Positions 6,970 to 58,808 of a stretch of DNA of 64,000 nucleotides are shown here, piece after piece. This stretch comes from Methylococcales bacterium (GTDB lineage: Bacteria > Pseudomonadota > Gammaproteobacteria > Methylococcales > Methylomonadaceae), in NCBI GenBank assembly GCA_028713055.1, contig JAQTOX010000001.1:3988-67987 (forward strand), read 5' to 3'. Each line of letters begins with the position of its first letter. The first letter of the stretch is position 1. The translations under genes were made by a program, and so were the position numbers. The notes under the pieces were generated by a model that saw nothing but the letters and a program-made list of their open reading frames with translations, was not told the origin of the DNA and ran no database searches.

Positions 6970-7024
6970 GCTATAATTTTCCCAATTAAACCCACCCGAT
7001 AATGCGTGACATGGATTTATTATA

Positions 7025-7264: not shown

Positions 7265-7266
7265 GC

Positions 7267-39939: not shown

Positions 39940-40687
39940 CGTTTTTATAATGTTCTAAAAAGCGTGGAATGATGTGCGTGGTAATCGCTTGAACTTGTTC
40001 TGAAGTTGCACCCAATTTGGACAAATCGAGTTTCGATTTTTTATCATTGTGGCATTCTTGGCAAGGCGTTCCTTGATGTATTTGATCGGTTTTTTGCCAA
40101 TTCATCGGCGCGTGAATTTTTGCGTGCAACGTCACCTTTTCTGAATCATTCGCGTGTTTCCATTGTTCTTCGATTTGATTTGAAAACTCATCACTTTTCA
40201 ACAAGAAAATCCGTACATTATTTAAAAATGGCCCGATTTTAGGATTTGTCAAACGTTGATTTTCGTTATCGATATTTTTGACAATTCGCAATAAATTCTG
40301 TCCTAAAACGGGCTGCTGTTTTTCCATATCAAACCACTGATAAGTAAATTTTTTATTTTCATAATGACACGTTTCACACGCAATAAATCGAACGTGCATA
40401 TTATTAAACGTGCGTGTTCTCAATGCCTTTTGATGTGGTAACGGAGAATGGCATGTTTGGCAAAAACTTTGTGGCGCGGTTTCGAGTTCACCCGTTTGTT
40501 TATGAAACGGTGGAATTACGAATTTTTCTTTAATCTCAATGTCTTTGTGTTCACGCACAGATTTTGCTGATAACTCAACCGCTTTTTGAGTAACTGACGC
40601 ATTTTCGATTTGTTGTTGGTGCAACGGAACATCTGCGGCAAAAGCCGATTTAACGATGAATAAAAATAATAAAAAATAAATTTTCAT
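39902..40687 (-). CDS. Trihaem c-type cytochrome (261 aa), secreted
   Basis: Signal peptide MKIYFLLFLFIVKSAFA and the motifs CQTCH, CETCH and CQECH. Confidence 0.85.
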   Translation of the reverse strand: MKIYFLLFLFIVKSAFAADVPLHQQQIENASVTQKAVELSAKSVREHKDIEIKEKFVIPPFHKQTGELETAPQSFCQTCHSPLPHQKALRTRTFNNMHVRFIACETCHYENKKFTYQWFDMEKQQPVLGQNLLRIVKNIDNENQRLTNPKIGPFLNNVRIFLLKSDEFSNQIEEQWKHANDSEKVTLHAKIHAPMNWQKTDQIHQGTPCQECHNDKKSKLDLSKLGATSEQVQAITTHIIPRFLEHYKNDDQRITIREMLR

Positions 40688-43019: not shown

Positions 43020-43022
43020 CGT

Positions 43023-44009
43023 TTAATTCTCAAACTCATGACAACTCAAACATAACGTGCCGTCTTTTGCTGGCAAGCGTAATAAAACTTCATTTTTCAG
43101 GCGTTGATATGGCGGCAAAGTAGTCGCTAATTTTTCTAAACGGTCGAGCTTATCCGCGTCAATAACTTCGCTCCAACTGTGTTTTTCATATTCCACGCCT
43201 TTTTTAATATCGCCATCGATTTGTTTGCTAGCAGGATTTTTTTCACCTAAAACACCTTTTGCGTGTGGCGAATGGCACGTTAAACAAAGCACTTCATCAT
43301 TTTCCGAAAGCGGCAAATGAACACCTTGCTCGGTTTCTATTTTTTGCAAACGCGCTTTCATATTTCGTGCTGAACTTTTCGATTGTTCTAACGTTTTAAG
43401 GTTCGCATCGGTATGTTCAACCGCGTTGAAATGCGGCGTTTTTAAATGGCAACCCAAACACACTTTTTCAACAGGTAAACGCAATCTGGCTTCAACTAAC
43501 GGACGCAATTTGTCGCGCTGTTCGTTGATTTCACTGTGACAAAATAAACAGTTTTCTTTTTTAATCGTACTGTCATCATTCAGCATCAAATGAATGTTTG
43601 GGCGTTCATGGGCTTTTTCATCGTGACAGTTCGCACAAAATGTTTCTAATTTTTTATAACCGTTTTTGCGTAAAAAATCAGGTGCATTCTTATCAATTTT
43701 GTCGTAAGGCGTTTCAGCGATTTTTTCTAAACCGTGGCACGTCTTACAACCGATTTTTCGCCCTTCTTTTAAAACAAATTCAGCAGGTGGGTGCATTTCG
43801 TCTAACAATTTAATATCTACCGCGTGATGCAAATCGGGCAAATGTTTCGATTGTTTATACGATTGCGTTTGCCAATCGGTCGATTCGGCGGCAAAAGGCG
43901 TTGTGCAAATTAACCATAAAACAAATCCTCCAACCCCCTTCAAAAAGGAGGCTTTTTCTTTTTCCCCTTGAAAAGGGGGGCAGGGGGGATTTGCTTTAAA
44001 AACTCTCAT
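43023..44009 (-). CDS. Hexahaem c-type cytochrome (328 aa); the N-terminus is encoded by the palindromic element
   Basis: CKTCH, CANCH, CLFCH, CLGCH, CLTCH and CLSCH. Signal-like GVGGFVLWLICTTPFAAES. A possible internal TTG start gives MKGVGGF... Confidence 0.85.
   Translation of the reverse strand: MRVFKANPPCPPFQGEKEKASFLKGVGGFVLWLICTTPFAAESTDWQTQSYKQSKHLPDLHHAVDIKLLDEMHPPAEFVLKEGRKIGCKTCHGLEKIAETPYDKIDKNAPDFLRKNGYKKLETFCANCHDEKAHERPNIHLMLNDDSTIKKENCLFCHSEINEQRDKLRPLVEARLRLPVEKVCLGCHLKTPHFNAVEHTDANLKTLEQSKSSARNMKARLQKIETEQGVHLPLSENDEVLCLTCHSPHAKGVLGEKNPASKQIDGDIKKGVEYEKHSWSEVIDADKLDRLEKLATTLPPYQRLKNEVLLRLPAKDGTLCLSCHEFEN
43918..43997. repeat. 80-nt palindromic (MITE/RPE-like) element, full copy
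   Basis: aaaacaaatcctccaacccccttcaaaaaggagg...ccccttgaaaaggggggcaggggggatttgcttt. The arms are inverted repeats of each other, and each arm contains its own C5/G5 mini-hairpin. Confidence 0.8.
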
Positions 44010-44995
44010 AATCCTTTCTGCACGCGCTCGCCGTGATTATGACAAGTCACGCAATCCGAACCATTGTTAAAATGCACGCCGCTTAAACCGTTGCCCGTGT
44101 CGATTTCACCACCATCAGAAACCGTTTTCATGTTGTGGCACAACGCACAAAATTGGCTGTAATTCGTGTTGTTTTCGAGTAATTTCACGCTATACGGTTT
44201 GTTACGCATTTTAGAATCAAGAAAAATCGCGCCATTGCGTGAATCATCAATAAGTAAATTCGCATCTGTTGTACCGTGCATGGTGTGACAATCGACACAA
44301 TTAACAATCGTTTTGTACGCATAACCATCGCGCAGACCACTATATAAACCATTGCCCGTGCCTTCTGAAACGCCGTGTTTATCAATTTTCCAATAATCAT
44401 CTTCGGCGGCAATCGATTGATTTCTTCTGCCTGCATGAATAATTGGATAGTTCGTTTGCTGATGATTTCGATTGTGGCAACGCAAACAGAATTCGTTTTG
44501 GTCTTGGTAAGGCAACGGAGTTTCCGTTGGTTTATTAGGTTTGTCGCTAAACATCGTCAAATCAATATCTAACTCAAATTTACCATTCATATTCGAGGCA
44601 TCATGACAAACAACGCATTGCCGACTGGTCGTTGGCAAATCTTTCGACGCATCAAAATCATGCCGATGCTTGCCTGTTCGCATTGGATTCAAAGGCATAT
44701 CTTGCGGATTATGACAAATCAAACATTGCGGCTCGGTTTTTTTCGCACCGTTATCACCGTGACAAGCTGTGCAAGTAGCGAATTTCTTTTTATCTACAAT
44801 TGTTTTTATTTTCGGTACGGTTTCATGCAAACGTTGTAGCGCGTGACAACTTTGGCAATTTGCTTTGCCCCACGCGCTACCCATTCCATGCGACGGTGTT
44901 AAAAGCAAACTACCATTTTGCGAAATCGTTTTGGCGTGAATCGGCATCACGAAAAACAAGAAAATTAAAAAGGGCAGATGTTTAACGTGTCGCAT
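44006..44995 (-). CDS. Octahaem c-type cytochrome (start taken at Met 44995; the track ORF extends to 45049)
   Basis: Eight CxxCH motifs (CQSCH, CTACH, CLICH, CVVCH, CLRCH, CVDCH, CALCH, CVTCH). Signal peptide MRHVKHLPFLIFLFFVMPIHA. Confidence 0.85.
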   Translation of the reverse strand: MRHVKHLPFLIFLFFVMPIHAKTISQNGSLLLTPSHGMGSAWGKANCQSCHALQRLHETVPKIKTIVDKKKFATCTACHGDNGAKKTEPQCLICHNPQDMPLNPMRTGKHRHDFDASKDLPTTSRQCVVCHDASNMNGKFELDIDLTMFSDKPNKPTETPLPYQDQNEFCLRCHNRNHQQTNYPIIHAGRRNQSIAAEDDYWKIDKHGVSEGTGNGLYSGLRDGYAYKTIVNCVDCHTMHGTTDANLLIDDSRNGAIFLDSKMRNKPYSVKLLENNTNYSQFCALCHNMKTVSDGGEIDTGNGLSGVHFNNGSDCVTCHNHGERVQKGL

Positions 44996-45575
44996 GACAG
45001 TCACTGCAATAATTTTCATTGTGGCAACGTCCGCAACGTGCCGAATCAAAACGTGCTTCTAAACCGTGCAACGTGCGATAACCTAACGGATGATAACCCG
45101 CGCCCGACGTGTCACGGCGCAAATGGCAATCGGTACAAAAGTTCACATCTAAATGACACGTTTGGCAGTATTTTTCATTGCCTCGCGCGGCTTCGTTGTG
45201 ATGGTTTTTGTAATCAAATTTATGGTCAGGCGGTTGAATGCGCTCTTTATCGGTGTGACAAACGTCGCAACGCCACGGCGCACGTTGTTCATCCACATGG
45301 CAATTATGGCAAACCGCTTTGAGTGATTCGTTAGCAATGACGGTTAAATTTTTGAGTTTTTTAATATCAACGACATCGGTTTTTGCGTAAGTATGACAAA
45401 GCAAACAACTATCACCTTCTTCTTTCATCACGTCTAAATGTGCGTTGTGCGGATAATAAACGTCGGATTTTTGATTTCGTTTTTCCCACCACGAATTGTC
45501 AGTTTTGGCATCAATCGCAAACACTGAACTCGTCAAAACGAACAATAAACACATTGTGATAATTCGGTAACTCAT
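44982..45575 (-). CDS. Heptahaem c-type cytochrome, very haem-dense (197 aa), periplasmic
   Basis: Signal peptide MSYRIITMCLLFVLTSSVFA. Motifs CLLCH, CHNCH, CDVCH, CQTCH, CTDCH, CGRCH and CSDCH. Encoded directly downstream of the beta-barrel gene. Confidence 0.9.
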   Translation of the reverse strand: MSYRIITMCLLFVLTSSVFAIDAKTDNSWWEKRNQKSDVYYPHNAHLDVMKEEGDSCLLCHTYAKTDVVDIKKLKNLTVIANESLKAVCHNCHVDEQRAPWRCDVCHTDKERIQPPDHKFDYKNHHNEAARGNEKYCQTCHLDVNFCTDCHLRRDTSGAGYHPLGYRTLHGLEARFDSARCGRCHNENYCSDCHATR

Positions 45576-47176
45576 GGTTTTTTCGCCTGAAAATAATCGA
45601 AATAATAAGTGAGTTGCATCGAGCCTAGATATTCATTGGTGAGTTGTGAATTGTTGATATAACTGGCTTTCAACGCCACAACCCAATTGTTTTTAATCAT
45701 CGTTTGCCATTCTGTTTCAACGCCTGTGGCAAAATTTTCGGGATACAAATTTTTCTTTTCATCGCGAAACGCTAGATTCACGCTGTAACGATTTTTACTA
45801 TCGAGTGCGTGGGTATGCGAAACATAAAAACTCGTCGCGTATTCGCCACTGTTCAATTCCAAATAATCGACTGTACCTTGCCAAGTGACATTCGGTTTAA
45901 ATTGGTAACTCACGCTGGCATTCGCGCCATAACCGTTATAACCCGTTTTGCGATCGGCAACTTGAACGCCTGCCGAATAACGCAAATCACTGGAAAAACG
46001 ATGCTCCACCGAACCGCGCCAAATTTGTTGTTCACCCAGCGCGTAAGCCGAATAAAAACGATCTCGAAAGGTGACATAAGGTTGAACAGGTCGATAGGCT
46101 TCGTAATAATTTCGCAACCGCACATTTTTAAAAACATCCCACCATGAATCGACAAACACATTTTCAAGGCGATTTTTTTCACTGGCGTAAGAACCTTTAA
46201 CGTAAATTTCAAACGGCTTTTTTTCACCGAGTAAATTACCCGTTAAATGCGTTGCGGCGTTATAGCGATATGTCGTCAACGTGCGTTTTCTAAGTGTTTG
46301 CGTTGGCATACCTAATACGTCGAAATTCGCATTTGTGGCAGGTTGATTTTCAACAGTTGTCGCTTCAATCGGTTGCGGCGTTTCAATCGCGTCGAAATTG
46401 TTATTGACCAAACTTTCATTAAATGTTGGCGAAAGTAACGTGTCTTCTGGATTGCTTGTGGTTTTTGGTGCTTCAACAACCGCGTTAGTATCAACATCTT
46501 TCACTTCTGTTTTAGGCGAAATTGGTTGAATTACATTTTGTAAAAATGTTTCGTTACGTTGAACCACTTGCATGCCAAAACGGAAATCAGTTTTTTCTAA
46601 TTTAAACCATGAGGTTGAAAAATTTGGAGAAAGATTTAACGCGCTTTCAATGCCTCCAACCAAATTACCGCGTAACGATTGAACGTGATCAACTTGCAAC
46701 GGTCGACCGCCATAAATCTCAAAACTCAACGGCGTTGAAACTTGATATTGTGCTGTTGCGCCATCAACTAAATACAAGCCTAAATTGTCGCTTTTTTCAA
46801 ACCGTCCACCGCGTAATGTCACGGGTAAAAAGTCAAAACTCTTTTCGGCATACGCCTGATAAAGCCGTTGTTTGTCGCGGTAAATATCGGTACTTAAACG
46901 ACTTACTGCGCTAATTTGTGCATTCAACTTTTGATTCGGATTGTTATAAACGAGTTGCCCCCAAACTTCACCCGTGTAATCACCATTTTGCATATCGTAG
47001 CGATTGTCGGTCTGCATTTTTGTACGTATTGAACCCCGCCAACTGTCGTTTTGGTCGGCGGCGAAAGTGTTTGTTGCCAATGCCGACAGCAAAGCAAATC
47101 CCCCAACCCCCTTCAAAAAGGGGGCTTTCTTATCTCTCCCCTTTGAAGGGGGGCGAGGGGGATGTGCTTTAATCAT
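45572..47176 (-). CDS. Outer-membrane beta-barrel protein (porin component; start taken at Met 47176, track ORF to 47224, possible TTG start inside the element)
   Basis: No Cys. Alternating hydrophobic/aromatic beta-strand pattern throughout (for example RYSAGVQVADRK, ANASVSYQF, WQGTVDYLEL, YATSFYVSHTHAL, RYSVNLAFRD, WVVALKASYIN, GSMQLTYYF). Signal-like GVGGFALLSALATNTFA-ADQ. One long P/T/N/E-rich loop. Confidence 0.75.
   Translation of the reverse strand: MIKAHPPRPPSKGRDKKAPFLKGVGGFALLSALATNTFAADQNDSWRGSIRTKMQTDNRYDMQNGDYTGEVWGQLVYNNPNQKLNAQISAVSRLSTDIYRDKQRLYQAYAEKSFDFLPVTLRGGRFEKSDNLGLYLVDGATAQYQVSTPLSFEIYGGRPLQVDHVQSLRGNLVGGIESALNLSPNFSTSWFKLEKTDFRFGMQVVQRNETFLQNVIQPISPKTEVKDVDTNAVVEAPKTTSNPEDTLLSPTFNESLVNNNFDAIETPQPIEATTVENQPATNANFDVLGMPTQTLRKRTLTTYRYNAATHLTGNLLGEKKPFEIYVKGSYASEKNRLENVFVDSWWDVFKNVRLRNYYEAYRPVQPYVTFRDRFYSAYALGEQQIWRGSVEHRFSSDLRYSAGVQVADRKTGYNGYGANASVSYQFKPNVTWQGTVDYLELNSGEYATSFYVSHTHALDSKNRYSVNLAFRDEKKNLYPENFATGVETEWQTMIKNNWVVALKASYINNSQLTNEYLGSMQLTYYFDYFQAKKP
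47091..47170. repeat. 80-nt palindromic (MITE/RPE-like) element, full copy
   Basis: aaagcaaatcccccaacccccttcaaaaaggggg...cccctttgaaggggggcgagggggatgtgcttt. It has the same length and architecture as the copy at 43918-43997. Confidence 0.8.
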
Positions 47177-47402
47177 CTTTAGTGCGGATTTCAAACGGTT
47201 CAAGCCCTTGCTTGCGTTGTTCACGGCGTTTTTTTAATGCCAAACCCGTGAACGTCGCCACTGCAATAATGCAACTTCCGCAACCTGCACACGTTCCAAT
47301 TTTCGGCACAGTGCAAGCCGTCGCTAATAATCCCTGACTCAATGCAACGCCCGAACCTGTGAGCCACGGCAATGATTGGGCGACTAAATCGGATGTTTTC
47401 AT
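47169..47402 (-). CDS. Small Cys-rich membrane protein (77 aa), unknown function
   Basis: Two hydrophobic segments flank CTVPKIGTCAGCGSC (CX8CX2CX2C), with a basic C-terminal tail. Its ATGA overlaps the upstream gene, and its stop lies in the palindromic element. Confidence 0.55.
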   Translation of the reverse strand: MKTSDLVAQSLPWLTGSGVALSQGLLATACTVPKIGTCAGCGSCIIAVATFTGLALKKRREQRKQGLEPFEIRTKDD

Positions 47403-50050
47403 TTTTTCAAATCCACTAAAACCGCACGTTCTGGCAATTGCGTCAGCGATAAAATAACGTAATTCGATTTAACAGCGATAATTTCAGCGGGAATGCGGGT
47501 TTTAGGTGGGTCAATAATGTTGCCGCTAACTAAATTTACCGCGAATAATCCCACTTCATTTGGCGCAGTCGCATAACCGTCGTAAGGTAATTTAACAAAC
47601 AACTTTTCTTTGCCAAGCGAGCAAATTAGCGCATCGTTTAAACAACGTGATTGAAAATAAAATACGGAACTTGAAACTTCACCTTGCGATAATGTGCTAA
47701 CTTTTTTATTTCCAACGAACGCAAAATCCATCCAATCTGAAGCGATAATTTCAAAACGATAATTCGGTAAAATAGCTTTATTTGCATTGGTGTAGTTTGC
47801 AGCCAGCCAGATATTTTTGACGTTGTCGCCTGTTAAATTATTCTTAAAAACAAAGGCTTTTCGAGTAAGTTGCGCGGCAAGTGTTGTTTTTACATCGGTA
47901 TCCAAATCCTTCAAAATATCATCTCGTGCCATGACTTGAAATTCGCCCGAAACGGCATTTATTTTGTTGCTTTGCAATTGTGAGGTAAATGGATTTAGTT
48001 TTGTTTCATACAAAACATCATCGATATTTTCGACAATTTTGCCGTCATCTGAGAGTTTGAAATATGGCATTGCTAATTTCACAACGCCTTCTTTAATCAG
48101 TTTTGGATACGCTGTTTTATCGTTTAATTCTGCGACCACACGAACATTGTTTTTGCCAAAAATTCCCGAGTCAGAAAGTGCCGAATTGATTGAACCGTTA
48201 CGTTTGCGTTCATGACAATCGGTGCAAGGCATCGTATCCGCGATAGGGCGCGTGTTGTGACTGATTAAATACTCATTCGTTTCAGTCCAAATCATTTGTG
48301 CATTGGGCTTTTGAAAACCTTTTGCTTTGAGCAAATCATCAAAACGTTTTTTCAGCTCTTTCACGTCTTGATAACTTTTTGGTTCGCTATCCACTCCGTT
48401 TGTAACTTCTAAACGTTCGGCTTGCGTTAAAACACGCTGATTTGTACTGTCTACCCAATAATAACGGCTCGCAGGATTGTACGGCATAATGCGCGACTTT
48501 CCATCTTCAGAGGGTCGATAACGAAAACGTGGTTTGAGTGGTTTATCTTGATATGCCAATTTATATGCCAATTTTGTGATATGGCACGTTTGACAGGCAA
48601 CGGAATTGAAATGCACTTGCACCGTTCTATCCAGTGTTCGTTCGGCATAACCCACCATATCGCCTCTATTCCGCCACAATTCACGATGGGCATCTAAAAT
48701 TGTCGCCAAACCCGAATGCGGCCATGCTGGTTTTTCAGGACTTCCGTAAGTTTGAACCCCGTGGCAATGCTCACATGACAATGGTTTAGGCTGATTATTC
48801 AAATCGCGACGCACATCTTCATCGGAAAATCCCGTTAAAAACTGATGATCCGCACTTAAATCCAGAGCTTTTTTGTAATAATTTTTTGCGTGACAGGCTT
48901 CGCAATTTTCAATCGAACGAACGGTGCCTTTTTCTGTCCACGATTTGCCTTTGTGAACATCGTCGCGCGTATCTACAACATTTGCGTCTACTTTTGCCGC
49001 GTCGCCAAAACCGTAAAAACCGCGTCGTTGTTCGCTAGTTGAATGACATAACATACAATTTTCGCTGGCTGGAAAACGCAACATAGGAATTTGTGCATCG
49101 CCGTTTGCGTCAAAAGCGGCTTCATCCCATTTCAAAACCGGTTCAGCATGTTCAGGTGTTTCAAGTGTGGCTAACGTTTGACCGTCTACGCTATCAGGCA
49201 ATAAATCTAAAAACGCAAAAATTGCCGAATTCGCATAACGAAACCAGCCGTTTTTGATAATTTGCACGTTGCGTTGTGTTTTCCATTCAGAAACGGGACG
49301 TTTGAACTTAGAAATATCCGCGTGGCAAGCCATACAGTCGGGTTCAATTACCCCGCTTTTTTGCCAATCCCATTGTTCAATTTTTTTGCCATTCCACTCG
49401 AAATAATCGCCGTCTAAAAAAGAAACTGCATTTTCAGGTTGTGAGTCGTAACGTTTTCCAACACGGTCTTTTTCAGCAAACCCCCCGCCAGTGTGACATT
49501 CTTCACAATTTTTAATCAAACCGACTGCGCCGTAGTCTAAAAAATCGGCTTCTTTCGTCGTCATTTTTTTACTTAACCACGAAGGATTATTGCCGTTTTG
49601 GCAACTGTAACCACCGAAATAAGCAGGTGAAGTCAGTGCTGCTAAACCACGACGAAGTCCAAATTTATCATCACTTTCATCGCGTCCCATTTCAAAGTGA
49701 TAAGCGTGACTAATTTTATCAATATCATGACAACCCGCTCCGCCACCACAACTGGTACGAGTGCTATAAGGTTTTTGGGAATCCAAAACGTGTTGCCCAG
49801 TTTCATCTAACAACGGAATTGCGGGATGGATTGTGGGGAAGTCGACGGTATTTCCAATTGCTGAATTTGTTGTGGCAACGACTGGCGGCATCATTGTCAC
49901 AGGCATCGTTATCGATGGTGTTGATATTGGCGCGATTTCATAGGTGGGCGTATATCCAGACAAATCTTCGCCATCGTCAGCCCACACATTTGAAAATGGA
50001 AATGCGAACAATAAAATTGCGAAAAAAAGTTGCTGAATGACGAAGTGCAT
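47399..50050 (-). CDS. Large multihaem c-type cytochrome (883 aa, 7 CxxCH + one CX5CH) with a non-haem C-terminal domain; first gene of the operon
   Basis: Signal peptide MHFVIQQLFFAILLFAFPFSNVWA and a Pro/Thr-rich linker. Motifs CEECH, CMACH, CMLCH, CEACH, CEHCH, CQTCH and CTDCH, plus CGGGAGCH at 49727-49750. The last ~270 aa lack haem motifs. Confidence 0.85.
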   Translation of the reverse strand: MHFVIQQLFFAILLFAFPFSNVWADDGEDLSGYTPTYEIAPISTPSITMPVTMMPPVVATTNSAIGNTVDFPTIHPAIPLLDETGQHVLDSQKPYSTRTSCGGGAGCHDIDKISHAYHFEMGRDESDDKFGLRRGLAALTSPAYFGGYSCQNGNNPSWLSKKMTTKEADFLDYGAVGLIKNCEECHTGGGFAEKDRVGKRYDSQPENAVSFLDGDYFEWNGKKIEQWDWQKSGVIEPDCMACHADISKFKRPVSEWKTQRNVQIIKNGWFRYANSAIFAFLDLLPDSVDGQTLATLETPEHAEPVLKWDEAAFDANGDAQIPMLRFPASENCMLCHSTSEQRRGFYGFGDAAKVDANVVDTRDDVHKGKSWTEKGTVRSIENCEACHAKNYYKKALDLSADHQFLTGFSDEDVRRDLNNQPKPLSCEHCHGVQTYGSPEKPAWPHSGLATILDAHRELWRNRGDMVGYAERTLDRTVQVHFNSVACQTCHITKLAYKLAYQDKPLKPRFRYRPSEDGKSRIMPYNPASRYYWVDSTNQRVLTQAERLEVTNGVDSEPKSYQDVKELKKRFDDLLKAKGFQKPNAQMIWTETNEYLISHNTRPIADTMPCTDCHERKRNGSINSALSDSGIFGKNNVRVVAELNDKTAYPKLIKEGVVKLAMPYFKLSDDGKIVENIDDVLYETKLNPFTSQLQSNKINAVSGEFQVMARDDILKDLDTDVKTTLAAQLTRKAFVFKNNLTGDNVKNIWLAANYTNANKAILPNYRFEIIASDWMDFAFVGNKKVSTLSQGEVSSSVFYFQSRCLNDALICSLGKEKLFVKLPYDGYATAPNEVGLFAVNLVSGNIIDPPKTRIPAEIIAVKSNYVILSLTQLPERAVLVDLKK

Positions 50051-50194: not shown

Positions 50195-50235
50195 GGCATA
50201 TCGCTTACTTGAAAAATAAAACTAGGCGATATACC
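50195..50235. promoter_or_regulatory. Imperfect inverted repeat (ggcatatcgc N20 ggcgatatacc) in the divergent intergenic region
   Basis: Paralogous to the perfect 12-bp inverted repeat at 53441-53483. It lies about 145 nt from the minus-operon start and about 160 nt from the 50395 start. Confidence 0.5.
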
Positions 50236-50394
50236 AGAATAACAAATTGTAAAGAGCAAAAAATACCAAAAATGCGACGTAATAAATTGAATTTAAAAGG
50301 CTATTTTCAAGGGCATAGTTATTGTTAGAAACCTAAATGTTACTAATTTTTAGTAGCGTTTTTACACAAAACTAATTTTAAAAAAGGAGGGTTT

Positions 50395-53355
50395 ATGCCC
50401 GATAGAAAAATTCAGACACATCGGCACAAGCGCAGATTAGGTTTAATCGCGTTTGCGCCGGTGATAGCCGTAATGGCAATCGCATCGCCGATGGTTCAAG
50501 CGGGTGTTGATGTAAAAGCTCCGACTTGCAAAATTCTTACGCCAAAAACGGGTGTCGTTTTTACTGCGAACAAAGACGTTTCATTTTCAGCGCAAGCTTC
50601 GTTAAAAGACCCAATAGCAAATCCGTTGAAATATGAATGGGATTTTTCTGGCGGGGTGATGGGCGAGTTAATTCCTGATTCTAATCCAGCCGTTTATAAA
50701 CGCCCTGACGGTTTAAAAACCACAGTGCAATTTGTCCGAGATAATGCGCGTTACACCGTACATTTCAGCGCAATGGATGCACAAAAACGCCGTTGCGAAT
50801 CTATTATTGAAGTCGTTGTCGGAACACCGCCAACAGGGTTGCCGGATGTATCGGCAATGGTTAAAGATTCACAGAAAAACGCGCCTAAAACTGGCAGTGA
50901 ACTGGCAGGAACTAAGAATGACATAGTTGTTTTGCCGTTTGAAGAATGGACATATCAAAATTCTAGCGATATGCGTTTGTTGTCTAATGGCTGGAGTTCA
51001 GCGTCACCGTTAGTAAATAATCTAAAATCGTATGCGTTTAAAAAAGACCGTTTACCCGTATTTTTAGATGACACCGCTGTAGAATTACGTTATTCCGCCG
51101 CATCAAATCCGGTTGATCCTGTCGGTAAAGATTCGATTAACACCACTAGTCAAAATTATCCATTAACTGCCAATTTGATTGATGCAAAAATTCAGAAAAC
51201 TGATATGTGGCAAATGCCACCTGCACGCACAGCGGCTGAAAAATCCAAGGATTATTTTGCTTGTTCATGGGCAATGACGGCTTATTGGGTTGCATACGGT
51301 TGCGGTGCATCTCAAGGATTGCCAACGGTTGACGAAGGTTATTTTAAAGCAAAAGTAGATAAAGCCACGGGTAAGGTAAGTCCTGATGATCAAAATAATC
51401 TTGAACACGGATTATTTATGCCAGGTAAAACCAAATCGTATGCAACAAATACGGCACAATCATTTTCACAATTTCAGGCAGATGAACAAGTATTTGCTGC
51501 GAATTTTTTACCCGTCACCGATATTGACGACAAAGGGCGCGTAAATCCTTTCCCTTTATGGCGCGTTGAAGCGGTTGATAAAGGATCACAAAAAGTGGTC
51601 GCAAAAACCGATGCTGTCACCAGCACCAGTAAAGACTTTAAGTGTCGTGAATGTCATGCAAAAGGAAAAATAGCTGCAAATCCAGATGCGCCGTACACAA
51701 AAGAAGCCTTCAATTCCAGTGCATACGGTAAGTTTGCGGAAAAACAAAAACCTACATCTGCTGACAAAATCTTAAGTAAACCCAAGTTTTTTAGCGTGGC
51801 TGATTCCAACGGCAAAGAAAACAGTTTATTCGATCAAGAATACGCTGCTGCCTTGAATTATTCGAGCATTCACCAGTTCTACGACAAAATTACTTTTCTC
51901 GACCAAATGTTAGATAAAGACGTGGATGATAAAGGTAAAGTGAACAGAGATACGCCCAGAGCCTGCTATGGTTGTCATGCCACCGCAATAAGTTTTACGC
52001 CGTTCAAAACGCCGTGGTGGGATGAAGAAGGTTTCGACAATAAAAACCCCGCTTATGCCCCTAGTTATTCAATTGCAATGCACCGTTTTCATGGTGAATT
52101 GCAATACAACGACAAAAAAACCGATATTGTCCGTGATAAAACAGGCAAATTTGTACGTTGGGATTGGAAAACGAAAGGCACGAATAATAGCGACAAAAGT
52201 TTATTTCCTGTTTTCGACAAAGAAGGCAAACAGCTTCCGATGGAAGATAACTGTTTGAAATGTCACAGCGGACATCGTGAACAGTTGTATCGTGACCGGA
52301 TGTACACCGCTGGCGTGAGTTGTTTTGATTGTCACGGCGATATGTTAGCAGTAGGTCAAGCCTTCCCTAAAAATTACCTCGATAACAAAGCAAAACTAGG
52401 TTCAACTGAACGTGATGATTATCGCGTGCCTTGGTACGACGAGCCTGATTGTGGTTCTTGCCATGTTGGTAATGCGAATATCGGTAACGATAAAAAGAAC
52501 GGTTTTTTCAGTGCAGGTGTCATGACAAAAGCATTTGATACGACTGATTTATCAGCAACGCCACGCCTTGCAGATAAAGAAAATCCTGACACGCAACGTT
52601 TTACTGCCGCGCCGATAGAAAATTATAAGACGAAGTTTGAAACGGATTTTTACTCTGGAGTCGATACCAAAACAGGCGATTTCCAAACTAAAAAAGTTGA
52701 TACCAAAGTTGATTCTGCTTTGTTTAGACAAGGTAAAGATAGACACGGTAACGTTGCATGCGCGGCGTGTCATGGTGCAGCTCATGCGGTTTGGCCAAAT
52801 CGGGATCCTAACGCAAATGACAACGTGACGGCGTTGCAATTGCAAGGTCACACAGGAACAATTTTGGAATGTAATGTTTGCCACAGCGCGGATTCGTTCA
52901 AAAATGAAGCTGATTTAGATGGCGGTCAATACAGTGGCGATGCAACTGTAGGAATTCTCGGTGGTCCTCATAATACACATCCAGTAAATGATCCGTATTG
53001 GTGGAAAGACTCACAATCTCCAGATGATGTGAACGTGAGTGATGGAAAAACCTATGGTGGTTGGCATAATAATTATGCCCAAAAAGCAGGTGCAAAAGAT
53101 GAAGATCAATGCGCGGCTTGTCATGGTAATGACCATAAGGGTACACGTTTATCAAAAACACCCGTGGATAGAACCTTTGATTTTAGTAGCTTTGATTTCG
53201 CTCGATTACAAAAAGCGGGTTTCAAAGCCAAAGTAATTAACGTTCCAGCGGGAACACCGATCGGTTGCGATACCTGTCATAGCATTAAAACCAGTTGTGT
53301 CAATTCGCCAGCGGGTAGCTCGTGTGGCGTTACTTCAGAAACAGTGACAAAGTAA
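50395..53355 (+). CDS. Giant multihaem c-type cytochrome with an N-terminal PKD-like domain (986 aa, 9 CxxCH)
   Basis: Signal peptide. PKD-like YEWDFSGG region. Motifs CRECH, CYGCH, CLKCH, CFDCH, CGSCH, CAACH, CNVCH, CAACH and CDTCH. RBS aggaggg. Confidence 0.9.
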   Translation: MPDRKIQTHRHKRRLGLIAFAPVIAVMAIASPMVQAGVDVKAPTCKILTPKTGVVFTANKDVSFSAQASLKDPIANPLKYEWDFSGGVMGELIPDSNPAVYKRPDGLKTTVQFVRDNARYTVHFSAMDAQKRRCESIIEVVVGTPPTGLPDVSAMVKDSQKNAPKTGSELAGTKNDIVVLPFEEWTYQNSSDMRLLSNGWSSASPLVNNLKSYAFKKDRLPVFLDDTAVELRYSAASNPVDPVGKDSINTTSQNYPLTANLIDAKIQKTDMWQMPPARTAAEKSKDYFACSWAMTAYWVAYGCGASQGLPTVDEGYFKAKVDKATGKVSPDDQNNLEHGLFMPGKTKSYATNTAQSFSQFQADEQVFAANFLPVTDIDDKGRVNPFPLWRVEAVDKGSQKVVAKTDAVTSTSKDFKCRECHAKGKIAANPDAPYTKEAFNSSAYGKFAEKQKPTSADKILSKPKFFSVADSNGKENSLFDQEYAAALNYSSIHQFYDKITFLDQMLDKDVDDKGKVNRDTPRACYGCHATAISFTPFKTPWWDEEGFDNKNPAYAPSYSIAMHRFHGELQYNDKKTDIVRDKTGKFVRWDWKTKGTNNSDKSLFPVFDKEGKQLPMEDNCLKCHSGHREQLYRDRMYTAGVSCFDCHGDMLAVGQAFPKNYLDNKAKLGSTERDDYRVPWYDEPDCGSCHVGNANIGNDKKNGFFSAGVMTKAFDTTDLSATPRLADKENPDTQRFTAAPIENYKTKFETDFYSGVDTKTGDFQTKKVDTKVDSALFRQGKDRHGNVACAACHGAAHAVWPNRDPNANDNVTALQLQGHTGTILECNVCHSADSFKNEADLDGGQYSGDATVGILGGPHNTHPVNDPYWWKDSQSPDDVNVSDGKTYGGWHNNYAQKAGAKDEDQCAACHGNDHKGTRLSKTPVDRTFDFSSFDFARLQKAGFKAKVINVPAGTPIGCDTCHSIKTSCVNSPAGSSCGVTSETVTK

Positions 53356-53394
53356 CACGAATACCATCGTCAAATTGGTGATTTAAAAAGAGGT

Positions 53395-53421
53395 GAGTCT
53401 ATTTTTAGACTCCCTTTTTTT
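53395..53421 (+). terminator. Rho-independent terminator
   Basis: gagtcta (53395-53401) pairs with tagactc (53406-53412), then a T7 run at 53415-53421. Confidence 0.7.
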
Positions 53422-53440
53422 ATGACCCTATTTTTTAATA

Positions 53441-53483
53441 TGGCATATCGCCTATTCTTCAAAGATAAGTGGGCGATATGCCA
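53441..53483. promoter_or_regulatory. Perfect 12-bp inverted repeat (tggcatatcgcc N19 ggcgatatgcca) in the leader of the second giant cytochrome gene
   Basis: The arms at 53441-53452 and 53472-53483 are exact reverse complements. It is conserved with 50195-50235. Confidence 0.6.
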
Positions 53484-53631
53484 CAATTTGTTGCATATTT
53501 TTCACAAGGTTACGTCTAATAAATTGAATTTTAAGGTTAACTTTAAAGGCGCGATTTTTGCGAATTAAATGGAGTTGCTGGTTCTAGCAGCGTTTTTACA
53601 CAAAAATTATTTTTAAAATCTAGGAGGGCTT

Positions 53632-56600
53632 ATGCCTAATAAACAAATTTCGCCGTATCGGCGCAAGCGCCGATTAGGTTTAATCGCGCTTGCGCCGATA
53701 GTGACTACATTGGTATTTCCGATTGCTCAAGCAGCGGTTTCACCGATTACGGCAACAGCAAAATACGATGTAAAAATTGGTAAAGTTGTTGTTGCTGGTA
53801 AAACTGCAACGACCATTTTAGCTGGCGCGAAAGTTTCCGTGTTGGATGCGTCGAATAACACGATTCTCTACACTATCAACACCGACAAGAAAAACGCCTT
53901 TACTATGAATTTATTGGGTACAACATCTGTGCCTTGTTTAGTGCGCGTTGAAGTCTCAAATCCAAAAGATAATTCAGTATCGCAAGTTTTATTGCCTGTG
54001 AATGGCGCAGACAAATCTTGTTCGACTGTGCCAGCGTGTGCGATTACCAAACCGATTGGTGATACAGAAATTACCGTTGGAAGTTCGGTGGCGTTTGAAG
54101 CATCGAAAATAAAAGGCGATTATTTATGGTCAATTAACGACGGTTCTACCGACACGACCCAAGCTGTTGTAAATCATCAATTCACTGCTGCGGGTAAATA
54201 TCGTGTGACCTTGAAAGTTACCGATGGCGAAAATCAATGTTTAGACGACGTGTTAGTTTCTGTAATTCCACCAAAAGGTACGAATCCTAATGGAAAAGTG
54301 AAAGAACAATCCGCGCCAGTTTTAGGTGGCGCGATGCCGATAGAAAAAGCAGGGAAAGTGACTAATGACACAGATGCTTTAGCTGTTTTGCCGTATGAAG
54401 ACATGGGAATGCAAGGTGGCAGTCAAATTAGTTTGCCATTTAATCCGATGATTAACTACAACGCTTTAAACGCTCAAGTCGTTCAAAAAGTCGAACATAA
54501 ACCTGTGTTACTCGATGATACCAGCGTAAGTGTGGCTTATTCAGCGGCATCGAATGCGAAAGATCCTGCTGGCAAAGATTCGATTAACTCAACCAGTCAA
54601 AATTTGTTCGATAAAAATCAGGTTGGCACAAATTACGATACGAAAGCCAGTAAAATCGATCCTGCGACCGGTAAACCATTGAAAAACGTTTTTATTGATG
54701 GACAAGATTATCAGCAAGCAAAAATCCGTAAATCAGAACAATGGGACAGGATTCATCAGCCTTTAGCCAAAGAACAAGGTATTGATGAAACAGGAATGGC
54801 ATTCGCCGACCAACAAAACCGTTTCATGCCTGCATTTGCGCCAGCGTTACCTGATCAAGGTGTTCGCGGAAATTCAGATAAAGCACAAGGAATGCGGCAA
54901 ATGCCGGGCGTGGCAAATCCATACGTGAAAAATGATCCTCAAACTTTCGCTTACAGTCCTGAAAAACAAAATTTTGCCGCACAATTTATTCCTGCTAGTG
55001 ACATCGACGACCAAGGACGTACAAACCCTTATCCGTTAATGCGTGTCGAAGCAAAAGTGGGGGGTAAAACAGTGGCAAAAACCGATGCGGTTTATACAAC
55101 AGCTTCTGAAACACGCTGCCGTGAATGTCATTCACAAGGCAAAATTGCGGGTGACGAAGATGTATGGCGGATACCGGTTTCAACCGACGAATTGCTGGCA
55201 CCGAATGGCAAGCCAGGTGCTGCAACAGGTGCAGGCAGTTTTGATCCTGGTGCAGATGCAACCAAACCTTGGCCACCTGCGGTTCATAACAAATTCGATG
55301 ACAAAGTCGACGACAATCCTGCGTTCACAAACTTAGCTAAAGAAATGAACGATCCCGCAAACAAAAACTATATTCCACGTGATCAAAATAATTTACGGAC
55401 TGACCGTGTAAAAGAATCACGTTGGGTAAAAGTGGATGCAACTGGTAAACCAACAACCGAAACGAGTCCAACAAAACCCGCAACAGCTGACGGGAGTTGG
55501 AAATTGCAAGTGCGTTTGAATTTCCGCGCACCTGAAGAAGAAGGCGGCACATCGTGGGTTGAACAAGAAAAAGCAGCGTTATTCAACACGTTAGTTATGC
55601 ACGATTATATGGTGTATTTTGGTCCAACACCTGCGACAGGCAAATTATGGCCAGCGAGTTATTCGAGCCAACTTGCAGATGGTTACGCAGACGATAAAGG
55701 TAAATCACGCACTCAACCGATGTATTTCTGTTCTGGACATCATCAAAGTTCGCTTAAATTCGATGTGGGCGTTGTGCCACGTGCTTTCCAAACAAATCGT
55801 TCTGATTATTCTAAAGCCTTCCATGCTTTCCACGGCAAAATGCAAGTGTATAAAGCGGACGTGAGTGCGGCGGTGAGCGCAGACGGTTTAGCGCATAAAA
55901 AAGGCGATTTGATTCGTGACGAACGTGGACATCCTAAAATGTTAGGCGGACGTGGTTGGGATTCTCAACATGACGATGATAATGGCGTACCTTTAACAGC
56001 GGATGCAAATGGTGATTTGACTGTTAAAACTGTTCAACCTTATGACGCAACCAAAAACAACTGGCGACCAGATTTATTCCCCGCAGATAAAAATGGCGAA
56101 CCAATGGTGAAAGTCGGTGAAAAAGTACCCGTCGAAGAAAACTGTAATAAATGTCACACGGGAGCAACTGAAAAAAGCTACCGCGATATTCATCACACTG
56201 CTGGTTTGAAATGCGACAGTTGTCACGGTGATATGTTGGCAGTCGGTAACGTTTATCCAAACAAAGGTTATGATGCAAACTTAACAGGCGGCGGAGCTTA
56301 CACTGGCGATTCTGTTAATTTCCGTAGACCTTGGTTGGACGAACCAAATTGTGGTTCATGCCACATGGGTGATGGAAACTTTGGCAAAGATGGTAAAGGT
56401 GATGCGTTTAGTGCAGGAGTTATGCGCCAAGCCTGGGATGCAAGCGATAAAACGGGTTTTAGTCGTAATCCAATGAATGCACGTTTTGCGGTCATGCCGA
56501 CCAAAGAAAATCGTCTTGAGCCAATTACTGCGCCCGATAAAACACAACCCCCAACAGTTACGGAAGATAAAACGAAACCTGTTGACCCAGTTACTGGCAA

Positions 56601-57387
56601 ATATCCAACCGTCACGACGTATCCTTCGGCAACAAAATATGTAGGTGTTCCGGTATCGCAAGCGTTATATCGAAAAAGTTCGGATGTTCATGGAACTGGC
56701 GCGAATGGGGCATTGAATTGTTCAACCTGTCACGGGGGTTCGCACGCGATTTGGCCTAACCAAGATCCGAATGCTAACGACAACCAAACGTCGAAACAGT
56801 TGCAAGGTTATGACGGCAACATTGCAGAATGTTCGGTTTGTCACATTAAAGACGATTTCAAATCAGGCTTAGTCGCTACCGATGGTGGCGCGAGTGGTTT
56901 GGGTGTTGGACAAGGCGTACGTGACGGAACACCTGTAGATTCAAGTAGTCCAAAAGCCTTCCTCGCAGGACCTCATGGTATGCACCCAGTTGGCGATGCG
57001 TCATGGTATTACGATGCAAAAGGCGCGGCGAAAAACACCGCGAAAGATGCAAGCAGTAAATTCAACGGCGGCTGGCACAATGATTTCGCTAAAAAAGCGG
57101 GACCAGATGGCGAGGATCAATGTGCGGCATGTCATGGCGCGGATCACAAAGGAACTCGTTTATCAAAAGCGTTTGTGGATCGTACGTTAACCGATGCTAC
57201 AGGCAAATCGATTAAAGTGGCGAAAAGTCAAATTATCGGTTGTGATTTATGCCACACGCTGGATAAAAGTTTTACGGGTTCACCCAAAGGCGTAGCGAAA
57301 GAACACGCGCCACCTAAACCCGAAACATTTGTGATTAAAACTGCACCTGTTGCGGCAGCAGGAGGTATGGGGGGAATGAAAATGTAA
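53632..57387 (+). CDS. Giant multihaem c-type cytochrome, paralogue of 50395..53355, with extra N-terminal Ig-like and PKD-like domains (1251 aa, 8 CxxCH)
   Basis: Shared N-terminus (RRLGLIA.AP). Shared blocks: NPYPLMRVEA/NPFPLWRVEA, AKTDAV, CHGDMLAVG, EPNCGSCH/EPDCGSCH, and DQCAACHG.DHKGTRLSK. One ancestral CxxCH is degenerated to CSGHH (55729-55743). Confidence 0.9.
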   Translation: MPNKQISPYRRKRRLGLIALAPIVTTLVFPIAQAAVSPITATAKYDVKIGKVVVAGKTATTILAGAKVSVLDASNNTILYTINTDKKNAFTMNLLGTTSVPCLVRVEVSNPKDNSVSQVLLPVNGADKSCSTVPACAITKPIGDTEITVGSSVAFEASKIKGDYLWSINDGSTDTTQAVVNHQFTAAGKYRVTLKVTDGENQCLDDVLVSVIPPKGTNPNGKVKEQSAPVLGGAMPIEKAGKVTNDTDALAVLPYEDMGMQGGSQISLPFNPMINYNALNAQVVQKVEHKPVLLDDTSVSVAYSAASNAKDPAGKDSINSTSQNLFDKNQVGTNYDTKASKIDPATGKPLKNVFIDGQDYQQAKIRKSEQWDRIHQPLAKEQGIDETGMAFADQQNRFMPAFAPALPDQGVRGNSDKAQGMRQMPGVANPYVKNDPQTFAYSPEKQNFAAQFIPASDIDDQGRTNPYPLMRVEAKVGGKTVAKTDAVYTTASETRCRECHSQGKIAGDEDVWRIPVSTDELLAPNGKPGAATGAGSFDPGADATKPWPPAVHNKFDDKVDDNPAFTNLAKEMNDPANKNYIPRDQNNLRTDRVKESRWVKVDATGKPTTETSPTKPATADGSWKLQVRLNFRAPEEEGGTSWVEQEKAALFNTLVMHDYMVYFGPTPATGKLWPASYSSQLADGYADDKGKSRTQPMYFCSGHHQSSLKFDVGVVPRAFQTNRSDYSKAFHAFHGKMQVYKADVSAAVSADGLAHKKGDLIRDERGHPKMLGGRGWDSQHDDDNGVPLTADANGDLTVKTVQPYDATKNNWRPDLFPADKNGEPMVKVGEKVPVEENCNKCHTGATEKSYRDIHHTAGLKCDSCHGDMLAVGNVYPNKGYDANLTGGGAYTGDSVNFRRPWLDEPNCGSCHMGDGNFGKDGKGDAFSAGVMRQAWDASDKTGFSRNPMNARFAVMPTKENRLEPITAPDKTQPPTVTEDKTKPVDPVTGKYPTVTTYPSATKYVGVPVSQALYRKSSDVHGTGANGALNCSTCHGGSHAIWPNQDPNANDNQTSKQLQGYDGNIAECSVCHIKDDFKSGLVATDGGASGLGVGQGVRDGTPVDSSSPKAFLAGPHGMHPVGDASWYYDAKGAAKNTAKDASSKFNGGWHNDFAKKAGPDGEDQCAACHGADHKGTRLSKAFVDRTLTDATGKSIKVAKSQIIGCDLCHTLDKSFTGSPKGVAKEHAPPKPETFVIKTAPVAAAGGMGGMKM

Positions 57388-57455: not shown

Positions 57456-58808
57456 ATGATTTTTTTATCAAAATTACAGAAAACGATTTTTATCACAGCA
57501 ATATTTTTAACAACAAATGCACAAGCGACAAATCAAAAACCGATTTCCAATGCTGACGCAGACCAAAACGTAGATTTTTCAGCCAGCGTTACGCTTGCTG
57601 GCGCAGAAAGTTCGGATTTCGATGGCGAAATTAAAACCTATCAGTGGTTACAAATCAAAGGCACGAAAGTGGTTTTACAAAATCCAAAAACCGCCGCCCC
57701 AACTTTTATCAGTCCAAAAAAAACAGACTCGTTAATTTTCAAACTCATAGTCACCGATGACAAAAAAGCGACGGCATTCGACACTGTGACAATTAACGTG
57801 GCAGCACAAATCCAAGGGCAATTGAACGACACAGGCATTACGTTTTGTTCAGATGGAGCGTTTAATGTGGCGAGTTGTGGCATTAGCACTTATCCGCGCC
57901 AAGATGCCGAATTTGGACGCGATTTTTTTGATAATGACGATAAAGATGGTCACGCGGGTTTTAGTTTCAATAAAATCAGTGCAACAGGTGAAAATTTGCC
58001 GCTCGATGCAACGCAATGGGCGTGTATCAAAGACAATATCACTGGATTATTGTGGGAAGTTAAAACAACTAAGAATTCAGCGGAAAGTTATCAATTTTCT
58101 GATACAGAAAAATTTGTCAAAACTATAAACGCACAAAAATTATGCGGCGAAACGAATTGGCGATTGCCACAAATTCAAGAGTTACAAAGCATCGTGAATT
58201 ACAGTATGCCGTTGCCTAATCCCAATATCGACAGCAATTTTTTCCCGAATTCAACCAGTAGGATTTATTGGTCATCAACACCTTATGCGAAAAATAAAAA
58301 TGATATGTGGGGAATTTATTTTGAAGATGGGCGCGTTTTTGAACAGGACAAAAAAACCAATGCGGCAATTCGTTTAGTCAATTCAGCAAAAAAATCGATT
58401 GCGAAAAAATATGTCATTTCAAAAGATGGCGCGGAAGTTTTTGACGCACAAACGGGATTAACGTGGCGGCGTTGTGTCGAAGGTATGAAGTGGAATGGTA
58501 AAACATGTAGCGGCTATCCATTTGGCGGAATGTTGATTGAAAGTTTGCAACGTGCGGCGAATGAAGCGAATTTATCGGGCAAAGCGTGGCGGTTGCCGAA
58601 TATCAAAGAATTAGCGAGTTTAGTCGATACATCACAGCCGGGTTTGGCAATAGATTTAACCACGTTTCCCGAAACACCAAATGATCAAATGTGGTCTTCT
58701 TCGCCTTATGCGTCAGATGCTTTTTTTGGTTGGGCGGTACATTTTTACTATGGTTCAAGTTATTACACGTATTTAGAAGACATTGCGATGATGCGATTAG
58801 TTAGATAA
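57456..58808 (+). CDS. Secreted protein with an N-terminal PKD/Ig-like domain and two DUF1566 (Lcl C-terminal-like) domains
   Basis: Signal peptide. PKD-like segment IKTYQWLQIKG...FKLIVTDDKKATAFDTVTINV. Two copies of the WRLP(Q/N)I(Q/K)EL.S(I/L)V signature. Confidence 0.75.
   Translation: MIFLSKLQKTIFITAIFLTTNAQATNQKPISNADADQNVDFSASVTLAGAESSDFDGEIKTYQWLQIKGTKVVLQNPKTAAPTFISPKKTDSLIFKLIVTDDKKATAFDTVTINVAAQIQGQLNDTGITFCSDGAFNVASCGISTYPRQDAEFGRDFFDNDDKDGHAGFSFNKISATGENLPLDATQWACIKDNITGLLWEVKTTKNSAESYQFSDTEKFVKTINAQKLCGETNWRLPQIQELQSIVNYSMPLPNPNIDSNFFPNSTSRIYWSSTPYAKNKNDMWGIYFEDGRVFEQDKKTNAAIRLVNSAKKSIAKKYVISKDGAEVFDAQTGLTWRRCVEGMKWNGKTCSGYPFGGMLIESLQRAANEANLSGKAWRLPNIKELASLVDTSQPGLAIDLTTFPETPNDQMWSSSPYASDAFFGWAVHFYYGSSYYTYLEDIAMMRLVR

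Follow-up and report, generated by a model that had tools for sequence, protein, structure and literature searches.

Two cytochrome c553O-family multihaem proteins encoded in tandem in a Methylococcales genome, one with a conserved CxxHH variant at its second haem site

The gene pair and its family

A 64,000-nucleotide stretch of a Methylococcales bacterium genome (GenBank assembly GCA_028713055.1, contig JAQTOX010000001.1, positions 3,988 to 67,987 of the forward strand), referred to here as the window and numbered from its own first letter, contains two adjacent genes for large multihaem cytochromes, which we call P1 and P2 (Table 1). A first-pass annotation, made from the letters alone, had described their products as paralogous secreted cytochromes that have a common signal peptide, common haem blocks and a PKD-like domain each, but that could not be placed in a named family from motifs. 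With the exception of the last point, this description agrees with what we found. The open reading frames (ORFs) are where they had been reported, and BLASTP aligns the two proteins at 35% identity over 635 C-terminal columns (E = 1e-92) and at 32% identity over the N-terminal half (E = 2e-40). Both carry the signal peptide sequence KRRLGLIA(F/L)AP, and all of the blocks that had been quoted are present in both: CRECH, CHGDMLAVG, DEP(D/N)CGSCH, WPN(R/Q)DPNANDN and DQCAACHG.DHKGTRLSK. P1 has nine CXXCH motifs and P2 has eight, and the BLASTP alignment pairs CYGCH of P1 (residues 524-528) with CSGHH of P2 (residues 700-704), in agreement with the nine-against-eight count proposed earlier.

A family name can in fact be given. 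To judge from homology, P1 and P2 almost certainly add two members to a family that is already described, cytochrome c553O of Methylococcales. A 5.8-billion-protein collection yielded hundreds of full-length relatives with matches at E = 0, nearly all from Methylococcales and including Methylococcus, Methylomonas, Methylomagnum and many lake metagenome-assembled genomes (MAGs); the Methylococcus relatives are annotated as 'cytochrome C' or 'Ig domain-containing' proteins, and the genomes nearest to this locus are Methylobacter-like MAGs. The source organism is itself a lake methanotroph resembling Methylobacter. P1 is 65% identical to a Methylococcus capsulatus protein, and P2 is 52% identical to the product of the CSSHH gene of M. 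capsulatus strain Texas. At this strain's locus (L014) a nine-CXXCH gene, 65% identical to P1, comes first, followed by the eight-CXXCH gene with its CSSHH, then a pair of seven-haem cytochromes that are relatives of the 883-aa protein of the window, and a barrel protein; site-by-site alignment with the first two places nine CXXCH in one and eight plus CSSHH, at site 2, in the other. Since M. capsulatus carries the same tandem pair, the nine/eight pair is not peculiar to the window. From gene order and size, we infer that the Texas genes correspond to MCA0421, MCA0423 (occ) and MCA0424 onward of strain Bath, where the cytochrome c553o family comprises MCA0338, MCA0421, MCA0423, MCA0424, MCA2259 and MCA2160 (Ward et al. 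2004, PMC517821). The features found here that correspond to this family are full-length homology, nine collinear sites (the occ type having no canonical site 2), a signal peptidase I (SPI)-type signal and PKD/Ig domains ahead of the haem core, and linkage to a multihaem/barrel operon of the MCA0424 type. The family was first described in 1999 by Bergmann and colleagues, who reportedly found nine motifs in ORF1 and about eight haems in cytochrome c553O.

The relationship extends well beyond the methanotrophs. A profile search of 1.84 billion representatives gave 3717 relatives at E <= 1e-3, of which 289 reached E <= 1e-30, and many of the relatives are proteins of 600-1100 aa with the same nine collinear CXXCH sites (P0249-P0360). 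Nine-site relatives outside methanotrophs come from Nitrospira/Nitrospirales MAGs (P0262, P0363) and a Desulfobacterales MAG (P0378), and many are labelled only 'PKD domain-containing protein'. On this sequence evidence, there is a wider PKD-nonahaem superfamily, as yet uncharacterised, and the c553O family forms its methanotroph branch. A P2-type gene was also found on a contig labelled as a Desulfuromonas sp. MAG (L021, VEPG01000103.1); its match (47% identity, same residues) equals that of a contig of Methylococcaceae MnB_9 (L022), seemingly from the same MAG series, and the Desulfuromonas contig is probably mis-binned.

Both proteins have a PKD-type domain behind the signal peptide. That of P2, besides its Pfam match, has sequence matches in the PDB to ColH and ColG and a Foldseek match to the ColG PKD domain with a template modelling (TM) score of 0.67-0.72, while that of P1 was recognized by Foldseek (ColG PKD, 4jrw/4tn9, TM 0.77-0.78) and by a family profile searched against the PDB (E = 3.7e-5). 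The beta-rich middle domain of P1 has no match in Pfam or NCBIfam. The additional N-terminal immunoglobulin (Ig)-like domain that had been credited to P2 is indeed there, but it is not a gain: its two Cys columns are found in 84% of P1-clade proteins, and it is the 986-aa P1, among the shortest members of its own clade, that has lost the domain. The haem core of P2 has clade-specific insertions at about residues 505-650 and 741-830 and the clade-specific invariant residues H552, H755, H767 and H854. Confident AlphaFold2 (AF2) models were obtained for P1 (predicted local distance difference test score, pLDDT, 84.2; predicted TM score, pTM, 0.87) and for residues 132-1251 of P2 (pLDDT 86.7, pTM 0.89). 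The two proteins also end differently: P1 has a tail with two additional Cys, C968 and C977 (53290-53352), and the P2 clade has a Pro-rich tail followed by GG.GGH, with His as the last residue in 88%, which in the P2 of the window (57300-57384) reads GGMGGMKM.

Table 1. Features of the P1/P2 locus, in window coordinates
Feature	Position	Strand	Details
P1 gene	50395..53355	+	986 aa; cytochrome c553O family, nine-CXXCH clade (MCA0421/ORF1 type)
P1 Sec-type signal peptide	50395..50502	+	aa 1-36, cleavage ...MVQA/GV; from translation; no lipobox; pLDDT < 50 over residues 1-36
P1 PKD-like beta-sandwich domain	50521..50820	+	aa 43-142; strands 44-142 in AF2 model
P1 beta-rich middle domain	50923..51639	+	aa 177-415; kept in both clades; DSSP on model
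P1 nine-haem core	51643..53283	+	aa 417-963; nine CXXCH and nine more family-wide His
P1 haem site 2, CYGCH	51964..51978	+	Motif scan and BLASTP alignment
P2 gene	53632..57387	+	1251 aa; occ/MCA0423 clade of c553O family, eight CXXCH and CSGHH
P2 Sec-type signal peptide	53632..53733	+	aa 1-34, cleavage ...IAQA/AV; from translation; N-terminus aligns with P1
P2 N-terminal Ig-like domain	53734..54021	+	aa 35-130; conserved C102, C130; domain absent from P1
P2 PKD domain	54031..54267	+	aa 134-212; Pfam PF18911, E = 5.7e-11
P2 haem core	55117..57258	+	aa 496-1209
P2 site 2, CSGHH	55729..55743	+	Conserved C-x-x-H-H variant of haem site 2
Inverted repeat, P1 leader	50195..50235	+	GGCATATCGC-N21-GCGATATACC; folding energy (dG) -13.4 kcal/mol, z -4.1
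Leader hairpin, then GTTTTTACAC, P1	50335..50361	+	About 35 nt before P1 start codon; dG -9.6 kcal/mol, z -3.5
Terminator after P1	53385..53421	+	Intrinsic, hairpin between A-run and U-run; dG -18.7 kcal/mol, z -6.3
Inverted repeat, P2 leader	53442..53482	+	GGCATATCGC-N21-GCGATATGCC; dG -26.9 kcal/mol, z -8.3
Leader hairpin, then GTTTTTACAC, P2	53574..53592	+	Folding and leader alignment
Terminator after P2	57401..57434	+	Intrinsic, then U-run; dG -19.9 kcal/mol, z -4.95
Multihaem cytochrome gene, 883 aa	47399..50050	-	First gene of divergent operon; counterpart of M. capsulatus 7-haem MCA0424-type genes
Downstream secreted protein gene	57456..58808	+	PKD domain (PF22352, E = 4e-18), two Lcl_C/DUF1566 (PF07603, E = 1e-57)

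Conservation, history and occupancy of haem site 2

Site 2 was surveyed in an alignment of 223 sequences, to which ten were later added. Throughout the 223 sequences every aligned instance of the eight other sites is CXXCH, the exceptions being one C-terminally cut motif and two rows that are truncated. At site 2 the P1 clade has CXXCH or CXnCH, while 96 of the 102 P2-clade proteins (97 of 103 after the addition) have C-x-x-H-H, in the forms CSGHH, CASHH, CAGHH, CGGHH, CVGHH and others. The Cys and the second His of this motif are 100% conserved in proteins down to 33-39% identity with P2. In these alignments the nine/eight split separates two deep clades and is found in M. capsulatus too, and the C-x-x-H-H motif, invariant in 97 orthologues, behaves as a variant of the site under selection. 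The earlier statement that P2 had lost a haem site is wrong if it is taken to mean a recent, lineage-specific decay.

Several other residues bear on what the site may hold. C700 stands alone among the core Cys of P2 in not belonging to a CXXCH motif, and there is no Cys with which it could form a disulphide; when a secreted protein keeps a free Cys invariant, a bound cofactor is indicated. Eighteen His are family-wide, namely the nine proximal ones and those at P1 positions 493, 563, 566, 784, 797, 859, 862, 891 and 914, and all 18 are kept in the CxxHH proteins. At position 636 of P1 (52300-52302) the P1 clade and all distant relatives have a conserved Met, and the corresponding residue is an invariant His throughout the P2 clade (H854, 56191-56193). 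The same Met-to-His change is seen in P0241, one of two P1-like proteins that have CxxHH, and it could represent an axial-ligand switch tied to the change at site 2.

The non-Methylococcales relatives, which form the outgroup, have nine CXXCH motifs, and nine is therefore taken as the ancestral count. Six P2-clade proteins have C(Y/A)S(S/T)CH, a CX3CH motif, and in an IQ-TREE phylogeny rooted on non-Methylococcales they form a clade nested among CxxHH lineages. The approximately unbiased (AU) test rejects a tree in which all P2-clade CxxHH proteins are united without this CX3CH subclade (p = 0.0004). Gene conversion from a P1-type paralogue was considered as the source of CX3CH and was ruled out, because the sequence flanking the site is P2-type. 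It would follow either that the second Cys was regained in the CX3CH subclade or that CxxHH arose several times. The two P1-like proteins with CxxHH, P0238 (CAWHH) and P0241 (CYAHH, from a Methylococcus MAG), have neither the P2-specific insertions nor their His, and a single origin of all CxxHH proteins including these two is not rejected (AU p = 0.084). The nine sites are collinear in about 70 distant cluster representatives, and the spacing differs at site 2 only, where CX3CH, CX4CH, CX5CH and CX6CH are found. As far as the alignments tell, site 2 is plastic but maintained, and it is the sole site that varies across the superfamily (CXXCH, CX3-6CH, CXXHH). A full-text literature search returned no paper containing 'CXXHH', and the strict conservation and repeated interconversion of CxxHH at a hypervariable site appears to be undescribed; we regard it as a testable lead and not as established novelty.

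We lean towards the view that the site-2 pocket of CxxHH proteins still holds a cofactor. As to the occupant, haem and an empty or structural site are each given somewhat short of even chances, and a metal is given about half the weight of either. A haem at this site would have a single thioether bond to the protein and the second His for its axial ligand, and a metal ion would be less likely; the single-thioether haem is favoured because a haem motif reappears within the CxxHH clade and because the ligands are kept. It can be suggested tentatively, in a more specific form, that CxxHH is a functional, cofactor-binding variant of the c-type haem motif with one thioether, in which the substituted His serves to tune the haem, bonds to the vinyl group left free or turns this haem into the substrate-facing one. 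The site would then be an evolutionary hot spot where CXXCH, CX3-6CH and CXXHH replace one another, the remaining eight sites staying fixed.

A number of points limit the case for a haem at site 2 of P2. The groups compared in the AU tests were named post hoc, from the tree. The genome has a single CcmF and a single CcmH, so no dedicated lyase is apparent. A conserved axial His would also be expected to persist if the pocket had turned into a metal site, and neither Foldseek nor the PDB profile searches gave a solved cytochrome with which the haem arrangement could be calibrated. In the 1999 work the purified cytochrome c553O reportedly contained 8.2 +/- 0.4 haem c per subunit of 124,350 Da, and the mature protein of M. 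capsulatus Texas has a calculated mass of 124,631 Da if it carries 8 haems and of 125,248 Da if it carries 9. Eight haems fit better, since both the reported haem count and the reported subunit mass are nearer to the eight-haem figures, although a count of 8.2 +/- 0.4 is too imprecise, for a protein of 124 kDa, to exclude nine firmly.

The same figures suit a second, equally tentative explanation, in which P2 is a true octahaem protein, as its eight CXXCH motifs would have it. The second haem would have been lost at the origin of the occ clade, with the Cys, the His-His pair and the former distal ligand now binding a metal ion or stabilising the fold, and electrons would bypass site 2 or a metal substrate would be reduced there. 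The gain of the four invariant His in the occ clade (H552, H755, H767, H854) could be accounted for in this way, but CxxHH is also found in P1-like proteins that do not have H552, H755 and H767. The Ccm system handles single-Cys haem motifs poorly (PMC3268396) and no additional lyase was found, and a copper ion would suit the copper repression of the family in M. capsulatus (PMC4831470). A long haem-free pocket is nevertheless hard to reconcile with the reappearance of CX3CH inside the CxxHH clade, for which the AU result was given above, and the CX3-6CH variation seen elsewhere is the behaviour of a plastic haem site.

It is highly improbable that CSGHH is a neutral relic from which the haem has gone and whose residues are kept by structural inertia. 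The canonical motif is absent, and AF2 confidence near the site is somewhat lower in P2 (block means 70-79) than in P1 (86), but full conservation of the Cys and the His-His pair in 97 sequences diverged as far as stated above would not be expected of a relic, nor would an unpaired invariant Cys in a secreted protein, and the site repeatedly interconverts with haem-binding motifs. Returning to the favoured possibility of an occupied pocket, the new point is that a single haem site is hypervariable and that C700, H703 and H704 offer a target at the level of residues. These residues bear on where electrons leave the protein and on whether a c-type haem or a metal sits on CxxHH. If it is true that site 2 faces the substrate, the two paralogues differ exactly where the acceptor is met.

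Transcription and neighbourhood of the pair

Each gene is probably transcribed separately, from a duplicated and conserved leader cassette to its own terminator, and the leader and hairpin terminator assigned earlier to each gene were found again (Table 1). The regions upstream of P1 and P2 are homologous over about 190 nt. The cassette (50195-50394 and 53442-53631) consists of the inverted repeat, a conserved TAATAAATTGAATTT block and a hairpin with GTTTTTACAC just before the ribosome-binding site. The inverted repeat, GGCATATCGC-N21-GCGATAT(A/G)CC, has two copies only in the 2.67-Mb genome, both of them in these leaders, and the hairpin shows compensatory base changes between the P1 and P2 copies as well as in relatives. 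The cassette is kept upstream of P1- or P2-type genes in relatives (upstream regions of L001, L003, L006 and L083), and the inverted repeat of the P2 leader is also present upstream of the P2 orthologue in L003. Rfam gave nothing credible on the leaders and both genes, and matches in a promoter consensus scan were not enriched over shuffles. A sigma-54 site overlapping the inverted repeat, searched for by eye, was rejected, as it had one mismatch in the GG and the wrong spacing.

The pair adjoins, and diverges from, a porin-cytochrome operon (37027-50050). This linkage of P1- or P2-type genes to the operon is kept in eight close relatives and in M. capsulatus (L014). Among the close relatives the locus has two forms: in one (L001, L002, L006, L020, L035) the operon diverges from P2, which is followed by the PKD/Lcl gene, and P1 is absent; in the other (L082-L084) the operon diverges from P1, after which comes a P2-like start. 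In L083 a 29-aa ORF after P1 reads MPNKNIPPPHRQKLRLGLIALAP... The contigs of P1-carrying relatives tend to end just past P1, and perhaps the duplicated leader breaks assemblies at this point. The PKD/Lcl_C gene follows the P2 orthologue in L001-L007, L010 and L026, and in the window a terminator lies between the two; its product may be a surface partner of P2.

Genes for cytochrome maturation are found beside the operon. The sole CcmH of the genome is encoded in the window (34373-34831), adjoining the cytochrome operon, along with a CycH-like gene (33162-34376) and a thioredoxin-like CcmG (36509-37030), and the single CcmF is on another contig (C158). Farther away, phage-type large terminase (gpA) and lambda-family portal genes are present in 4583-8790 and 15524-24865, together with a 3113-aa ORF followed by several ORFs that have no Pfam match.

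Electron transfer at the cell surface and comparison with known systems

There are growing reports that methane is oxidised under hypoxia by aerobic methanotrophs, with electrons passing to iron minerals or electrodes. To our knowledge, no methanotroph surface cytochrome outside the c553O family has a knock-out phenotype (PMC6281684), and we know of no solved structure or mechanism for the family. As the present locus shows, lake Methylobacter-like populations have kept the pair, with a porin-cytochrome operon alongside and a conserved leader cassette.

A role for P1 and P2 in electron transfer at the cell surface, as the first-pass annotation had proposed, is probable and is in our judgement the best reading, because the homologues in M. 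capsulatus are surface-located and copper-repressed and because MCA0421 has been linked to anodic current. In strain Bath, copper-starved cells, which express the soluble methane monooxygenase (sMMO), show 13.9-fold induction of MCA0421 and 10.1-fold induction of MCA0423 (PMC4831470). Both were among the proteins of the surface-extracted fraction, and the family is described as "noncovalently attached" to it (Larsen & Karlsen 2016, PMC4831470). Signal peptides of the SPI class and PKD domains are present in MCA0423, MCA0338 and MCA2160, for which type II secretion has been predicted (PMC4257694). When MCA0421 is deleted, copper-starved cells give a significantly lower anodic current (Tanaka et al. 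2018, PMC6281684). A 2026 paper on a Methylobacter bioanode (PMC13322032) was set aside as a description of the c553O family, since its cluster is of a different, MtrAB type.

By analogy with these homologues, P1 and P2 would be exported by Sec and then receive their haems in a Ccm-dependent manner, after which type II secretion would carry them to the cell surface, where they would be retained non-covalently. They would take electrons from the trans-outer-membrane conduit of the adjoining porin-cytochrome operon and hand them to extracellular acceptors, for example Fe(III), Cu(II), humics or electrodes. Both the localisation and this electron path are inferred from homology.

P1 and P2 could instead be periplasmic carriers or enzymes, for example of nitrogen-oxide or hydroxylamine metabolism, with the atypical site 2 as a catalytic haem like those of NrfA, MccA and SirA. 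In known multihaem enzymes a non-canonical haem motif marks the active-site haem, and P2 has a single atypical site; the description of 1999 is also said to have called the products putative periplasmic cytochromes. We consider a periplasmic function unlikely, given that neither protein matches the NrfA, HAO or tetrathionate-reductase models, that the PKD/Ig domains and the linkage to a barrel-cytochrome operon point outward, and that surface extraction releases the homologues, which are found in the surface fraction (PMC4831470, PMC4257694).

The profile and structure searches that had been suggested for placing the proteins among known multihaem families were carried out. A Pfam and NCBIfam scan of P1 and P2 found, as regards cytochromes, only generic c7/c3 models and sub-threshold matches to MtrC and DmsE; the MtrC domain II/IV model PF22113 scored 28.0 and 27.5 bits against a cut-off of 30, and TIGR03507 (MtrC/OmcA) was matched by neither protein. 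Membership of an octahaem reductase family, which had been named earlier as an example of a characterised enzyme family, received no support, as the models for octahaem tetrathionate reductase (TIGR04315), NrfA and HAO were unmatched by either protein and there were no PDB sequence matches to these. Searches of the PDB with the single proteins and with a 64-sequence profile returned PKD matches only and no cytochrome. Foldseek against the PDB gave only Ig, PKD and FN3 domains for the two models and none of MtrC, OmcA, MtrF or UndA, with the reservation that the models are haem-free and that Foldseek is weak on loop-rich cytochromes. The haem core is without a solved relative, and P1 and P2 fall outside the MtrC/OmcA, OcwA, tetrathionate-reductase, NrfA and HAO families.

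Nevertheless, P1 and P2 probably work like MtrC and OmcA of Shewanella, which offer the likely working analogy of a multihaem protein that sits outside the outer membrane, is fed by a porin-cytochrome complex and is delivered by type II secretion. MtrC and OmcA have ten CXXCH motifs and a lipoprotein signal, whereas P1 and P2 have nine sites, a PKD and beta-rich architecture and no lipoprotein signal, there being no lipobox and no Cys at the cleavage site of the signal peptide. OcwA of Thermincola potens, a proposed terminal reductase at the cell surface, also has nine haems (PMC6703420), but it has no detectable similarity to P1 or P2 in sequence or fold and its host has a different envelope. 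If the haem is kept at CxxHH, a haem with one Cys and His ligation has counterparts in the euglenozoan cytochromes c and c1 with (A/F)XXCH (PMC8262978) and in SfmD with HxnHxxxC (PMC8179489); CxxHH differs from these in that it is the first Cys that remains and a His that takes the place of the second, and in that the protein around it is a multihaem one whose maturation otherwise depends on Ccm; the attachment here is putative. Compared with the M. capsulatus system, P1 has lost the N-terminal Ig-like domain, and several close relatives have no short paralogue at this locus. The M. capsulatus MCA0421/occ pair is co-directional with its seven-haem cytochrome/barrel operon, while the pair in the window is divergent from it, but the two pairs are alike in tandem order, Sec signal, PKD domain and the combination of nine sites in one protein with eight plus CxxHH in the other.

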